DNA from: a bacterium
GTDB lineage: Bacteria > Zhuqueibacterota > Zhuqueibacteria > Residuimicrobiales > Krinioviventaceae
Reading direction: 5' to 3'
Length of the DNA stretch: 64,000 nt
Assembly: GCA_963693055.1 (NCBI GenBank)
Contig: OY843751.1
Location: 480,001-544,000, forward strand
The notes beneath the pieces were generated by a model. That model was not told the origin of the DNA. It did not search any database and saw only the letters and a list, made by a program, of their open reading frames with translations. Positions 26,715-32,885 of this stretch are shown here, one piece after another; position 1 is the stretch's first letter; each line of letters starts with the position of its first letter. The position numbers were made by a program, and so were the translations under genes.

Positions 26715-27851
26715 ATGAAGAAAAGAGCTTTTATCAACACGGCGGTTACGATAATATTTTTGTTCGGGCTTTTATTTTTTGGGGAAGAAATTCTATTGGC
26801 TCAACCCGGTAATGGAATGGGGCATCACGATGATAAAGGAATGCACGCATCATTTTTTGAATTGCTCACAAAAGATCAGTTAGCGGAAATACAATCACTT
26901 GTTGAAACCCTGCGAGAAGCGGGCAGTGACCGTGAGGCGGTTCGTAAAGCTGTGGACGCCAAATTGGACGAGTGGGGTGTTGAGCGCCCGGAACCCCCTA
27001 AAGGTGGTGGACATGGTATGCATGGTGGTCCTTTTGCGGATCTGACAGAAGAACAGCGTGCCGAACTGGAGACGCTCGTTAAAACCCTGCGCGAGGCGGG
27101 CAGTGACCGTGAGGTGGTTCGTAAAGCTGTGGACGCCAAGCTGGACGAGTGGGGTATTGAACGCCTGGAACCTCCGGAAGGGGGAAGATATGGCGGTCCC
27201 GGTAAACACGGAATGCCTTTTAAAGATTTGTTGACCGATGAACAGCAAACAGAGCTGGAGACCATGATCAGTAGCATGAGAGATGCCGGCAGTAGTCGTG
27301 ACGAGGTTCACGAGGCAGTAGAGTCTAAACTGGAAGAGTGGGGTATAGAGATCCCTGAGAAACCAGATCAGAACATTCATGAAGCTATGAAGGGCTTGAC
27401 AGCGGATCAACGCAAACAGGTACACGAGCTGGTCAAAGACATGCATGAGCAGGGAGCTGAACGTAAAGTAATTCAGGACGCAGTCAAGAGTATGTTGGAA
27501 TCGTTTGGGATAGAAATGGGTGACAGTTCCGAATCCGGTGATTCGAAAGTCGAAACTCAAAACAATTATGGAAGTACAATCCTGGCTGCAAGCAATTTCC
27601 CCAATCCTTTTAATCCTGAAACCCGGATCAGTTTTGAGCTGGGTAAAGCCGCTAGAGTAAGAGTGTCTGTTTATAATGTTAAAGGCCAGCTGGTAAATAC
27701 CTTGATGGATGAGTATCGTAATGAAGGGACCTGTCAGGTACAATGGAACGGAACGCTGGGAAATGGGGATACCGCGCCTTCGGGTATGTATTTTTTTAAA
27801 ATAAATGCCGATGATGAAACATTAACTGAAAGCATGTTATTAATGAAATAA
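26715..27851 (+). CDS. T9SS type A sorting-domain (FlgD-Ig) protein with four helical repeats
   Basis: Signal peptide; repeats LT.[DE]Q..E...LV..LRE.G..RE.V...V..KL.EWG; C-terminal NFPNPFNPET.I.F...YNVKGQ.V.TL...WNG...SG.YF...MLLMK. Confidence 0.88.
   Translation: MKKRAFINTAVTIIFLFGLLFFGEEILLAQPGNGMGHHDDKGMHASFFELLTKDQLAEIQSLVETLREAGSDREAVRKAVDAKLDEWGVERPEPPKGGGHGMHGGPFADLTEEQRAELETLVKTLREAGSDREVVRKAVDAKLDEWGIERLEPPEGGRYGGPGKHGMPFKDLLTDEQQTELETMISSMRDAGSSRDEVHEAVESKLEEWGIEIPEKPDQNIHEAMKGLTADQRKQVHELVKDMHEQGAERKVIQDAVKSMLESFGIEMGDSSESGDSKVETQNNYGSTILAASNFPNPFNPETRISFELGKAARVRVSVYNVKGQLVNTLMDEYRNEGTCQVQWNGTLGNGDTAPSGMYFFKINADDETLTESMLLMK
26901..27172 (+). repeat. Intragenic near-identical 95-bp direct repeats
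   Basis: 26901-26995 vs 27078-27172, offset 177 bp (59 codons). Confidence 0.85.
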
Positions 27852-27956
27852 GGAAAATTTTCCGGTAGGTTTTGGAAAAAAGGCGGTTATTTCATATAGT
27901 ATTTACTAGAAGTAACCGGAAGTCAAACAAAGATTTTAAAACTTACCGGAGGACAA

Positions 27957-28784
27957 ATGTACAATACTCGTAGTAGTTTGTATGACAGGATATTAGAAAA
28001 AACACCCGAGCAAGTATTCATCAATTCTTTACGAAAAGAATTTGAATTATCACCGGCAGAAAGTAAAGGGATATTGGATTTAGCCAAGCAGTGTTTATTT
28101 GGCGAGGTTCCCCAGACAGTTGGTAAAATAAAATATATCTGCGCATCCACCAAGGCAAAACATGGCAAGCCCCTGGGTGAGCAGGAATTGAAAGAAGTAG
28201 AGTTAACACTGGATGCCGGTGTAGAAGATTTAAATGTATTAAAAGAAAGCGGTCCCAAGGCACTGCGCCAGTTAAAGGTCTTACGATTGACCGAAGAAGC
28301 CTGGGATCAGGAAGGTTCTTTGACACAAGAGGATTTGGCCCGGATCCTCCAGGTTACGAGCCGCACTGTACGCCAGGATATAAAGTCTTTGCAGACTGAT
28401 GGCAACTTTATTCACACGCGCGGAACAGACCATGACATCGGTCGGAGCTTGTCACACAAAAGCCACATTATTGAACTGTATTTGCAGGGAGACACATACG
28501 ATGCAATTATTCGTAAAAGTCGTCATAGCGCGTTTTCAATAAAACGATATGTGTGCAGCTTTGGCAGGCTGTTGTTATTACTGAATCATGGTATGCAGGA
28601 TATCAAAGAGATCAGTCGGTTATTAGGCCAAAGTGAGCGTTTGACCCGTGAGTACCTGGATATTTTTGAGCATCATAAACAGGGTGACAAATGGCCGCCG
28701 ATCTATGTAGAGTTATTGGAGCAATTAAAGGTGTTATACCCCTCGAAAAAAAAACAAACCAAGGAGGGGATCGATGAAGACTAA
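27957..28784 (+). CDS. DUF1670-like protein, subtype A (element 1)
   Basis: A.DQ.G.LTQEDLA.IL..T.RTV..DI, TRG..HDIG...SHK..II.LY..G, HS..SI.RY; RBS ggagga. Confidence 0.8.
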   Translation: MYNTRSSLYDRILEKTPEQVFINSLRKEFELSPAESKGILDLAKQCLFGEVPQTVGKIKYICASTKAKHGKPLGEQELKEVELTLDAGVEDLNVLKESGPKALRQLKVLRLTEEAWDQEGSLTQEDLARILQVTSRTVRQDIKSLQTDGNFIHTRGTDHDIGRSLSHKSHIIELYLQGDTYDAIIRKSRHSAFSIKRYVCSFGRLLLLLNHGMQDIKEISRLLGQSERLTREYLDIFEHHKQGDKWPPIYVELLEQLKVLYPSKKKQTKEGIDED

Positions 28785-29589
28785 GCCTTTAAATCGTTAT
28801 GAATCAATAGCTAAGCGTAGCTTTCAAAATGCGATTATTCGATTACTGGAAGAAAATTATAAAATGCTGGGAAGCCACAAAGTCATCCGGATGATTGCGG
28901 AAGATATTGTCGCATTGCAAAATGAATTTTATCCAGAGCTGGAAAAGAAAAGTTTTGGTCAGATTATCTGGCGGACAACCAAAGCGACAAACCGAAAGCC
29001 AAGCTATGGCACAAAAGCGGAAGATTATGAGGTTCAGACAGTTGTGCTACCGTTGGTAACAGATGCGGATATTGACAATCGTATCAAAAGCCATTATTCT
29101 TATCCCCCAAAAGATGGCAGTGCTAATTATGAAAAACAAACAGAACGGGATATTAAAGTAATGGCGCGGTTATGCAAGAGTGCGGCAGAACAGGGCGGCT
29201 GGTTGACAGGTGCAGAACTCAGTGTATTGTTGAATCGCTCATTAAACACTATTGGTCGGTATATGACAATTTATCATGAAACGCATGATGATATATTGCC
29301 GACTAAAGGAATGATGCTGGATCAGGGCAGTAAGCCGACGCATAAAGCCGCAATTATAGATTTGTACGAGCAGGGATATCCCGAACCGGATATCGCCCGG
29401 ATTACAAATCACACAATTGAATCAACGAGTCGGTATTTAAAGAGTTACAAGAACGTAAAATCATTATTGGAAAAAGGTTTTAATTTAATGGAAATGGTAA
29501 GAATAACCGGATTAGGACGGAGTACAATATTACAATACCGTGATCTGGTTTATCATTATCATTCAGATTTAATACAAAAGAAAACTTGA
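28774..29589 (+). CDS. DUF1670-like protein, subtype B (element 1)
   Basis: GQIIW, A.EQGG.LT..EL..LL, LPTKG...DQG...THK..II.LY..G, HT..S..RY; RBS aaggagg; overlaps the end of A. Confidence 0.8.
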   Translation: MKTKPLNRYESIAKRSFQNAIIRLLEENYKMLGSHKVIRMIAEDIVALQNEFYPELEKKSFGQIIWRTTKATNRKPSYGTKAEDYEVQTVVLPLVTDADIDNRIKSHYSYPPKDGSANYEKQTERDIKVMARLCKSAAEQGGWLTGAELSVLLNRSLNTIGRYMTIYHETHDDILPTKGMMLDQGSKPTHKAAIIDLYEQGYPEPDIARITNHTIESTSRYLKSYKNVKSLLEKGFNLMEMVRITGLGRSTILQYRDLVYHYHSDLIQKKT

Positions 29590-29862
29590 AAATTTGAAAA
29601 GGAATTAATAGGTTAGGTTGTCATTGTTTTTCAGCTAACTCCAGTCGCCCTACGAGCTCCTTTCGTTAGCTGAAAAAATGAATAAATGTTCTAATCTTAA
29701 AAACAACCTACCGGAAATATTTCCTAAACGTAAATAGTATCATATGACCAGAGGAGAAAAAGAAATTTATAAAACCCCCTAAAAATACAACGGAGCGTCA
29801 GATCATTAATAAATTTGGTGATCTGTCATTCTGAAAGTAATAAAAGGGAAATATAAAAGCAA

Positions 29863-30687
29863 CTAATTGTTCTTTGAAAGATTCAACTGACTCCTTTGAT
29901 TTTTAATTTTATCAGGCAAAAGATCAACATATTGTTGTATGACACGTTTGGAAAGTCTTGCCAGCTGGCTGATTTGATCAAGGTTTTTAATGTCATGCTT
30001 CCAAAGTAATTCAACACGATGGTAATCTTTGATATACCTGTCAACCGCTTCGTTGCTGTGTTTGGTTTTCAAAGCGATTTCGGGAGTGAGATATCCCTCA
30101 AGATACAGAGTGATAATTTCGCGTTTATGAGTAATAGCGCCGGAAAGATCATGGATGTTGCCACGCGTTGGTAAGAGATGCCCTTCTTTTTGGATTTCAT
30201 TTACATATTTACTGACAACGGCATCACAGACACCGAGTAACATAGCCAGGTCAAGTTGAGTAAGCAGAGCACCTTGATCAAAAGCTTCATCAACCCAACG
30301 TTTGAGGCGTCTTTTCCTTAAAGTTTTGGAATCAAAACCATGCGCGATATGAGAAGTATCCTGATCAGTAATGAAAGAGAGGACAACGGGTTTCATTCGG
30401 GTAGCGGCAATACTTTTTCCGCGTTTGGGGTATTCATCGACAGGAACAGCCATCCAGACGAGTTGCCCATAGTGAATATGGTGCAAGTCATCATCAATAG
30501 AGGAGACAAGGAAATAGTCATCAATGATTTTAAGGATATCATCAATGATGGCATTGGCAGTGATGGCTCCTTTGTCATAGCCATAGCTATTCAAAAAGTT
30601 GTACAGTAGTAACTGCTTGAGATCTTTATCTTTAAGTCGTCTCATTTTTTTGAGTTGAATTTGTTCTTTAGTCAAAGGTTTACTCAT
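29863..30687 (-). CDS. DUF1670-like protein, subtype B (element 2)
   Basis: GQLVW, AFDQGALLTQ.DLAMLL, LPTRG..HD....THK..II.LY..G, HS....RY; ATG 30687 follows aggagg. Confidence 0.8.
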   Translation of the reverse strand: MSKPLTKEQIQLKKMRRLKDKDLKQLLLYNFLNSYGYDKGAITANAIIDDILKIIDDYFLVSSIDDDLHHIHYGQLVWMAVPVDEYPKRGKSIAATRMKPVVLSFITDQDTSHIAHGFDSKTLRKRRLKRWVDEAFDQGALLTQLDLAMLLGVCDAVVSKYVNEIQKEGHLLPTRGNIHDLSGAITHKREIITLYLEGYLTPEIALKTKHSNEAVDRYIKDYHRVELLWKHDIKNLDQISQLARLSKRVIQQYVDLLPDKIKNQRSQLNLSKNN

Positions 30688-31519
30688 TTTCTTTGCCTCC
30701 TGATAGATGTTGAGGAATGGATTTTTTTTTCGCGTCGCCACCAGGTTCCGCAGGAGATAACAGATCGTTTAATCGCGTATTGTTTTGTTGAAGATAGGTT
30801 TGGTAGAGTTGGATATACTCGCGCACCAGGCGGTCGGATTTCTTTGCAATGAGTCGAATCTGGTTCGGAGAGAAATTTTCCTTGTATAAAAGGGCGATCT
30901 GCATAAAGTCAGCGAGGTAACGTTTGATGCTGGTTTCAGAATGATTGGTTTTTTGTTCTATTTCTGAAAAGGTATAACCTTTAAGATACAGATCAATAAT
31001 GATGGTTTTATGAGACAGTCCGGGACCCATGTCATGTTTCATACCTCGTGTCATGATAAACATACCGTGATGACGGAGATGATAAATGTCACGTTTAACA
31101 GTGGCCGGACTGGTGGTTAAAAGCATTGCCAGGTCTTCATAGCTGAGTAAAGCACCCTGATCATAGGCTTGTCGAGTCAGACGGGCGATCCGGTGTCGTC
31201 TAAGTCCGGCAAGGCCATAATTAGCCAGGGCTTGCAGATCTGTATTAAAGTCAATTAGTTTGAGACGGACCGTAAGCTTTCGGGTTAATCTGATATGTTT
31301 GCCGGCTGGTTCTTCAGCGGCAACAGCTTCATAAGCGACTTCACCTCCTGATAATGAAATGTTGGAATGTTCCTGAAAGTATTGGTCAAATTGTTGATAG
31401 TAAGCTTCGGCAATAATAGGAGTCAAATTGAAATCCTGAGACAGTTTTTGGACAATAGCGTTTTTAGCTGTCTTGGATTCGAGTCTTTTTAAACCATAAT
31501 TATTTTTAACATCTGCCAT
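30680..31519 (-). CDS. DUF1670-like protein, subtype A (element 2)
   Basis: AYDQGALLSYEDLAMLL..S.ATV.RDI, TRG..HDMG...SHK..II.LY..G, HS..SI.RY; ATG 31519 follows aggaga. Confidence 0.8.
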   Translation of the reverse strand: MADVKNNYGLKRLESKTAKNAIVQKLSQDFNLTPIIAEAYYQQFDQYFQEHSNISLSGGEVAYEAVAAEEPAGKHIRLTRKLTVRLKLIDFNTDLQALANYGLAGLRRHRIARLTRQAYDQGALLSYEDLAMLLTTSPATVKRDIYHLRHHGMFIMTRGMKHDMGPGLSHKTIIIDLYLKGYTFSEIEQKTNHSETSIKRYLADFMQIALLYKENFSPNQIRLIAKKSDRLVREYIQLYQTYLQQNNTRLNDLLSPAEPGGDAKKKSIPQHLSGGKENE

Positions 31520-31596
31520 AAGAATCTCCTTATTTCTGTTTTTATTAAAACAATGATTCCTATGGTCATATGCACTAAACTTTAAATAGTTTATAG

Positions 31597-32561: not shown

Positions 32562-32626
32562 AACAACCTTTACCCAGGTTAATATTAGAAGGACAGTTGC
32601 CCTACCCAGCGGCTGTCCTTTTTTTT
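32562..32626 (+). ncRNA. Candidate sRNA 1 (two hairpins, UACCC loops)
   Basis: Promoter GAAC-N16-CGTT (32529-52); aacct-TTACCC-aggtt; aaggacagttgc-CCTACCCA-gcggctgtcctt plus T-run. Confidence 0.6.
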
Positions 32627-32767
32627 AGTTAATGTTGGCTATTGTACAATTTTTTGATTCTATTTTTAGAAAAAAAGTTTTTATAAATTTTTTTTAATTT
32701 AGTGGTTATTTTTTTAAATTTTGCGTATTTTTTCTGAACTTTTTTGCATGTAATACGTTATAAATAA

Positions 32768-32838
32768 AACAACCCCTTTACCCGGGTTGATAGCAGAAGG
32801 ACAGTCGCTCCTACCCAGTGGCTGTCCTTTATTTTTTT
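32768..32838 (+). ncRNA. Candidate sRNA 2, paralog of sRNA 1
   Basis: Promoter GAAC-N16-CGTT (32736-59); caaccc-CTTTACCC-gggttg; aaggacagtcgct-CCTACCC-agtggctgtcctt plus T-rich tail. Confidence 0.6.
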
Positions 32839-32885
32839 AATTGTGAATTTAATTGAACTTTTTTTTATATGCATGGTTGAAATAA

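Follow-up and report, generated by a model that had tools for sequence, protein, structure and literature searches.

In the window, a 64,000-nucleotide stretch of a bacterial genome, positions 29732–31585 were found to be occupied by E2, a jumping gene of approximately 1.85 kb. E2 is a real, recently active, and site-specific insertion sequence, and no known transposase is detectable in its family. Dispersed identical copies, defined ends, and empty alleles, by which an insertion sequence is recognized, were all found for E2. The closed 6.5-Mb genome contains six copies of E2, identical across the element, four of which stand apart from the sister element E1, and seven copies of E1, five of which have no E2 nearby. 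A second close E1/E2 pair (C1, 1.346–1.350 Mb) proved to be two separate insertions in two convergent genes. In the same-genus genome G001, the allele was empty at all three sites checked, including the locus of the gene at 26715–27851; two of these alleles agreed with the sequence reconstructed around the core, and the third had a Lys codon differing at its last base. The insertion of E2 removed nothing from the target. Movement of the four genes of E1 and E2 as one block was ruled out by the lone copies of both elements and by the empty allele in G001, and the original prediction of an independent mobile element was thus borne out. An assembly artefact was ruled out by a single unitig, corresponding exactly to 29732–31585 and branching at both ends, in the contigs assembled for one sample (three runs), which may be the source. 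No RNA run was listed among those containing the element. The cargo of E2 consists of two DUF1670 genes only, and this gene content suggests that E2 encodes its own transposase activity.

The boundaries were fixed by comparison of the flanks of the copies, and the three empty alleles agreed with them. E2 extends from 29734 to 31583 with an AA at each junction (29732–29733 and 31584–31585), corresponding to 1852 bp with one AA counted; neither pair of boundaries proposed originally (29735–31577 or 29739–31582) was correct, and the length of about 1843 bp had to be revised. The two minus-strand A/B open reading frames and the imperfect inverted repeats at 29735–29755 and 31558–31577 were present as described in the prediction. 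The predicted 8-mer at 29731–29738 and 31583–31590 was also present, but only the dinucleotide AA was repeated at both junctions of all six copies, which ruled out an 8-bp duplication or an 8-bp core. The longer match at this locus arises because the element carries ATAG, by which the stop is rebuilt, and the target's own stop was TAG. The idea of a crossover core instead of a long target duplication held, with a size of 2 nt in place of 8 bp.

The target gene (26715–27851, plus strand) encodes a protein of 378 amino acid residues with a T9SS type A/FlgD-Ig sorting tail, for which the Pfam families FlgD_ig and Por_Secre_tail were above their cut-offs and TIGR04183 scored 31.5 bits against a cut-off of 23. 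The gene-proximal AA core of E1 (27846–27847, plus strand) lies within the Lys codon of this gene, the stop codon of which is now supplied by E1. The protein contains internal helical repeats, of which there are more in the G001 orthologue (open frame of 515 amino acid residues). E1 (27848–29731, plus strand; 1886 bp) carries A1 (27957–28784), B1 (28774–29589), a run of nine A residues (28746–28754), and boxes at 27852–27863 and 29713–29724. The AA core at 29732–29733 (plus strand) is common to the far junction of E1 and the gene-proximal junction of E2. The gene-proximal end of E2 (29734–29755, plus strand), identical in the six copies, begins with ATAG, which completes a Lys codon and a stop, followed by a 12-bp box (29738–29749). 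On the minus strand, B2 (29863–30687; 274 amino acid residues) has its own ribosome-binding site and ATG, and A2 (30680–31519; 279 amino acid residues) overlaps it near a run of nine A residues (30722–30730), a predicted slippage site with B in the +1 frame. The far end (31558–31583, plus strand) consists of the inverted repeat with a 12-bp box (31564–31575) and 8 nt to the core, beyond which positions 31584–31589 (plus strand) comprise the AA core and the displaced remainder of the target's own Lys and stop codons, matching the empty allele of G001. A promoter scan detected a site inside the near end of E1 (27872–27900) and, at its threshold, none at the far end of E2. In many relatives, the E2-type far end bears a −35-like hexamer at its tip and, about 17 nt further in, TAnnnT, the box falling in between. 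These motifs may represent an autoregulated promoter, the signal of which is weak in the E2 copy of the window. A 69-bp intergenic repeat occurs in two copies (32567–32635 and 32775–32844) 208–209 bp apart, each forming a hairpin followed by a T run.

The dinucleotides at both junctions were collected at 107 distinct two-ended sites representing 110 elements, including the six copies of E2 in its own genome, and were AA/AA at 91, CG/CG at 5, TA/TA at 2, AG/AG at 1, and mismatched at 8. The bases before the far core are fixed for each element, and only 2 nt vary. Identical junction pairs at 99 of the 107 sites, including those other than AA, would be expected if A and B were a transposase making a staggered cut that duplicates two target bases, namely a new enzyme with an IS630-like outcome and no carried core. 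The two loci L021 and L068, which have like ends and nevertheless AG/AG and AA/AA cores, respectively, also favor such a duplication. We nonetheless regard it as unlikely, since mismatches were enriched at sites other than AA (4 of 95 sites with AA on the gene side versus 4 of 12 otherwise; Fisher p = 0.005, although the sites are not independent), and since the core type follows the far-end variant of the element, all six CG sites having one variant that is present at 14 of the 107 sites. Moreover, in several of the mismatches an AA on the gene side is accompanied, on the far side, by what could plausibly be a final codon (Glu, His, or Arg) and a stop, and the ends are asymmetric in their distance from core to box (4 nt versus 7–8 nt). 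Both outcomes were seen among the mismatches, the target base lying either beside the gene or at the far junction, in which case the gene is followed by AA. The mismatch excess at targets other than AA points to a core carried by the element and to a circular intermediate, and the pattern fits a 2-nt core that travels through a circle, with replication or repair resolving it afterwards. The assemblies behind the eight mismatches are drafts or metagenomes, and the mismatches are not lineage-independent and could be due to later mutation or chimeric assembly. A survey of 301 genomes added five near ends with dinucleotides other than AA; no paired far end was found for any of them. No circle joint was found in viral contigs or in the contigs of the three runs of the possible source sample, in which rare forms are dropped. 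At one of 250 loci (L216), a far end was joined to a short near-end remnant; this was rejected as a circle joint and read as stacking on an old scar.

All four A and B proteins of E1 and E2 belong to Pfam DUF1670 (PF07900), a family without an assigned function, with scores of 160–211 bits against a cut-off of 25 (199 bits for A2 and 211 bits for B2). The BLAST identities were 34% between A1 and A2, 30% between B1 and B2, and 34% between A2 and B2. The claim that the A proteins resemble each other and the B proteins resemble each other was therefore not supported by BLAST, in which they are no closer than A2 and B2, but it was supported by a quick tree of 72 rows, in which A and B each fall on one side of a branch with a support of 99, in line with the conserved A-B order anticipated. 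The same four clades appear within A and within B, and these proteins therefore descend jointly from one old duplication.

Known catalytic domains were sought in these proteins by sequence and by structure. Neither profile nor fold searches detected a DDE, serine, tyrosine, or DEDD catalytic domain: NCBIfam and PHROGs returned only weak helix-turn-helix (HTH) rows for the E1 and E2 proteins, no integrase match was obtained in Pfam, NCBIfam, or PHROG, family profiles of serine recombinases and DEDD transposases gave no match, and hhalign against tyrosine recombinases gave a probability of 0.3–0.6% with a 6-sequence alignment. Among PDB sequences, a narrow profile had no match at E values up to 1, and a wide profile yielded only weak HTH rows. 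The AlphaFold2 models (pLDDT 86 and pTM 0.61 for A2; pLDDT 78 and pTM 0.48 for B2) comprise helices, a single small sheet, and three HTH-type units; in A2, a helical N-terminus is followed by the small beta sheet, a winged helix, and two further HTH units. The best structural match of A was generic (Z 6.5, rmsd 1.8, 56 residues aligned), and the winged helix of topoisomerase VI A appeared as one tied generic VIA row (Z 5.6, rmsd 2.6, 61 residues aligned). No recombinase catalytic domain was among the 50 VIA matches listed for A, which barely cover residues 1–95. Foldseek found no match for A at E values up to 0.001 in PDB and viral libraries and none for B in PDB, and the ESM Atlas gave only HTH clusters, under 0.9. 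The models thus show likeness to HTH and winged-helix proteins only, with no recognizable active site.

R113, R158, H170, H193, Y201, and Y235 of A are conserved in 101–108 of 107–108 rows, and the matching R130, H187, H210, Y218, and Y253 of B in 75 of 75 rows, so that both paralogues have Arg, His, Lys, His, Arg, and Tyr at equivalent positions. This residue set suggests phosphotyrosine chemistry. A possible likeness of the His to Tyr stretch to the C-terminal box of tyrosine recombinases was rejected for want of support from hhalign. The modelled A-B complex scored 0.41 against 0.01 for the best control, with at least 36% of contacts shared between runs and a partner pLDDT of at least 66; the mark used was reached by 116 of 157 solved pairs and 2 of 215 mismatched pairs, of which 18 and 2, respectively, lay at 0.60 or under. 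The modelling thus lends weak support to an A-B complex. Homologues of 500–950 amino acid residues held only more DUF1670 units or unrelated read-through. Four proteins (P0251, P0253, P0255, and P0262; 930–952 amino acid residues) contain three DUF1670 units and an insert of 150–200 residues without assignment.

A run of 7–10 A residues in the overlap of A and B was present in 66 of 71 clusters (171 pairs clustered at 85%), compared with runs of at least 7 in 8 of 1026 control windows. The B frame was open through the run in 65 of the 66 clusters and the third frame in 11. The shift was +1 in 56 clusters and −1 in 10, a distribution better explained by polymerase slippage than by a −1 ribosomal shift. 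Fused A-B proteins with 71–80% identity to B2 are on record, and three of the inspected ones are joined at the A-run; they could be homopolymer errors. The conserved A-run is likely to yield an A-B fusion.

The fold predictions, which resemble HTH arrays only, and the seven tyrosine-recombinase matches in the genome would accord with A and B being mere DNA-binding adaptors, with cutting performed by a host Xer-type recombinase, a topoisomerase, or the transposase of another element. This explanation is, in our estimation, quite improbable: no other element with E2 ends was present in the genome, A relatives with 61–81% identity to A2 occur in eight phylum-level groups with the same single-base precision, and the His, Arg, and Tyr residues are near-invariant in both paralogues.

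Among 89 distinct end pairs, conservation extends over about 22–24 nt per end and no further inward. Each end contains a 12-bp near-palindromic box. On the gene side, 4 nt separate it from the core, and on the far side the spacing is 8 nt in E2 and 7 nt in E1. The box and this geometry were found in all the clades seen, and more distant clades keep the box. Because of this common architecture, and because a third type (L024) combines E1 spacing with an E2-like box, the ends of E1 and E2 are best described as diverged homologues tracking the protein clade, and not as the unrelated sequences supposed originally. That the ends track the proteins was confirmed, as none of 133 E2-type pairs had an E1-type end upstream and none of 7 E1-type pairs had an E2-type end downstream. 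Relative to the ends, the gene cassettes of E1 and E2 point in opposite directions. The 2-nt core, the sub-terminal inverted repeats, and the fixed orientation are also features of IS110/IS1111 elements, which are guided by bridge RNAs. RNA-guided targeting is already largely refuted and has a very low probability here, since conservation stops about 24 nt inside the ends, the non-coding ends are short (as little as 6–30 nt from the B stop to the end and mostly 49–109 nt from the end to the first ATG), no Rfam match was obtained at E values up to 1, and the targets have a codon pattern in common but no base-pairable string.

E2 selects its target. Among the 13 full copies of E1 and E2, 11 lie directly on the Lys and stop codons of sorting-tail genes, and the remaining two are the E2 of the window, stacked behind E1 on such a site, and one intergenic E2. 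Targets with AAG-TAA or AAA-AAC retain these bases at the far junction, and AA-ATAG is found at the near one; the crossover therefore takes place within two bases, and the element supplies the remainder of the codon and the stop. A tail profile seeded with the 11 occupied tails, and hence circular for those 11, identified 228 tail ends, 147 of them ending in AAR-TAR; TIGR04183, which is independent of this seeding, was above its cut-off for both occupied tails tested. Random insertion at AA with survival of harmless insertions alone, for which insertion at a rebuilt stop would indeed be harmless, can practically be dismissed, because none of the 549 other open reading frames of at least 150 amino acid residues ending in AAR-TAR in the same genome was occupied (about 8e-9 for 12 insertions) and the orientation is fixed per clade. 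Further near-end scars were found behind at least four more tails of this genome. An orphan far end of E1 lies inside a truncated sorting tail (G000:C1:333437), which suggests that a deletion took the tail end together with most of an element. The intergenic E2 (G000:C1:6088448), whose site ranks far down by the target matrix, adjoins a repeated intergenic element and lies just upstream of a gene whose own end, about 1.84 kb farther along, is a sorting tail.

The same preference was observed in foreign pairs, which were drawn from the best 80 of 123 genome stretches, the best 80 of 199 metagenome stretches, and 167 genomes of the phylum. Of the E2-type loci with at least 450 bp of flank, 80 of 96 face a tail gene (133 distinct pairs collected); the other 16 comprise nine with a near end, several of them behind tail-like ends missed by the profile, and seven with none. 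The orientation relative to the target gene is fixed per clade, with 0 of 133 E2-type pairs and 6 of 7 E1-type pairs lying co-directionally behind a tail gene. A 27-bp matrix including 21 bp upstream (97–101 foreign sites) ranked the 11 own tail sites at 9–1007, and the occupied sites scored like ordinary tails, indicating that this matrix alone is insufficient for targeting; with 45 bp upstream (97 foreign sites), the same sites ranked at 15–111 among the positions of both strands. A long DNA footprint would suffice for targeting, and translation-based guidance is also possible. At L160, L209, L213, and L258, the TA used for insertion is that of the stop codon, and a far-end variant of their own is common to L209 and L213. 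Members of another clade (L022, L023, L031, and L047) keep the 12-bp box and core geometry and yet are not at sorting tails, and their junction dinucleotides differ at L047. A distant DUF1670 clade (L051 and L052) is located inside the loop of small GC hairpins and not at gene ends.

E1 and E2 are co-targeted: both use the Lys and stop codons of sorting tails, and at this locus they do so on the same dinucleotide. By the target matrix, the far end of E1 is a poor target (rank 39830) and the gene end is a good one (rank 186), which suggests that E2 likely inserted first and E1 later, into the regenerated site. In other genomes, too, different elements or end scars were found piled on a single stop codon, in both orders (L183, L152, L025, and L216), the order at L183 being opposite to that in the window; the same was seen in a contig of run X4 at the position corresponding to 29713–29747.

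E2 has features in common with several known systems. In IS1 and IS3, overlapping A and B frames with an A-run give a fusion, and B carries the DDE domain. E2 likewise has overlapping frames with an A-run and a likely A-B fusion, predicted from sequence, whereas its B is a paralogue of A and not a DDE domain. The DDE domain of IS1, IS3, and IS630 has no family match in A or B, the models of which contain one small sheet and are otherwise helical. Elements of the IS1111 group of IS110 have sub-terminal inverted repeats, a 2-nt core, a fixed orientation, a DEDD transposase, and a bridge RNA. E2 resembles them in the repeats around a 2-nt core and in its fixed orientation, and differs in having no DEDD match and no room for a bridge RNA in its non-coding ends. 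In IS607, a circular donor leaves non-matching junction dinucleotides experimentally (10.1101/2023.11.20.567912), and the E2 family similarly has a 2-nt core at both junctions with mismatches tolerated. IS607 uses a serine recombinase, for which A and B have no family match; it is described in that paper as having no inverted ends, and it targets a 4-bp motif, whereas E2 has inverted ends, two paralogous genes, and a multi-copy gene end as its target. The SE, GInt, RIT, and Tn554 elements share with E2 several related genes, imperfect terminal inverted repeats, and target specificity, and donor bases are likely carried to the far junction (PMC10214605). The same paper assigns them RHRY tyrosine recombinases and a 6-bp footprint, whereas A and B have no such profile match, and at most 2 nt vary in the E2 family. 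A tyrosine-recombinase fold was not among the listed fold matches of A and B, by which residues 1–95 are barely covered. TnsD of Tn7 reads 36 bp at the 3′ coding end of glmS and the gene is left intact (PMC12372198), and E2 resembles Tn7 in its proposed read-out of the 3′ coding end of a conserved gene that is kept intact. Tn7 inserts 27 bp downstream at one site by the TnsAB transposase (PMC12372198), whereas the crossover of E2 falls within the last codon, the stop is rebuilt by the element, and about 150 sites are available in each genome. Genes similar to tnsA, tnsB, tnsC, and tnsD are absent from E2, which has two DUF1670 genes only.

Taken together, we consider it probable that E2 enters the first two bases of the last codon in sorting-tail genes, supplies the stop, and moves via a circle by its own DUF1670 recombinase. 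A, B, and the slippage-made A-B fusion would bind the 12-bp boxes, and the ends would join across the 2-nt core to form a circular intermediate. The complex would read about 45 bp of tail-coding DNA upstream of the core, comparable to TnsD at the glmS end, and a mismatch-tolerant exchange of 2 nt would leave either the target or the carried dinucleotide at each side. As the site is regenerated, a later element would enter next to the gene and displace the earlier one outward, here E2 followed by E1. A phosphotyrosine link through Tyr201 of A and Tyr218 of B, aided by the conserved Arg, His, and Lys, is a guess that we offer tentatively. With slightly less assurance than for the route of E2 itself, we favor DUF1670 as a new recombinase class built of HTH units, acting as an A/B pair or a fusion with its own active site, using a mismatch-tolerant 2-nt core and no guide RNA, and recognizing a protein motif through its codon pattern; diverged clades with distinct ends would thereby share, and stack on, a single multi-copy safe harbor.

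The family is widespread. A proteins with 61–81% identity to A2 were found in records titled KSB1, Calditrichota, Ignavibacteria, Bacteroidetes, Marinimicrobia, Cloacimonadota, Poribacteria, and Gemmatimonadota. DUF1670 was present in 33 of 167 genomes of the phylum and also in the Methanosarcina acetivorans control, and 1480 representatives at 50% identity match its profile. Searches of plasmids, phages, and viral contigs found no relatives. No paper naming DUF1670 (PF07900) was found, and none of the papers listed for insertion at T9SS stop codons describes it, in the literature searched, outside of which lay subscription papers, ISfinder, TnCentral, and bioRxiv supplements; an unclassified database entry for the E2 family may exist.

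Prokaryotic transposases employ a few chemistries (DDE, DEDD, serine, tyrosine, and HUH). A 1.85-kb element that occurs in at least eight phylum-level groups with none of these detectable would add a class; A and B, which are predicted to be DNA-binding proteins, likely act as an undescribed type of recombinase. E2 is also a compact candidate for C-terminal tagging or insertion tools. One genome harboring two clades at about 33% identity, with distinct ends and one target, provides a ready pair for studies of end specificity and orthogonality. These elements also exemplify a new safe-harbor strategy: they enter the last codon of a degenerate gene end that is defined by its protein and occurs about 150 times per genome, and they repair it themselves.
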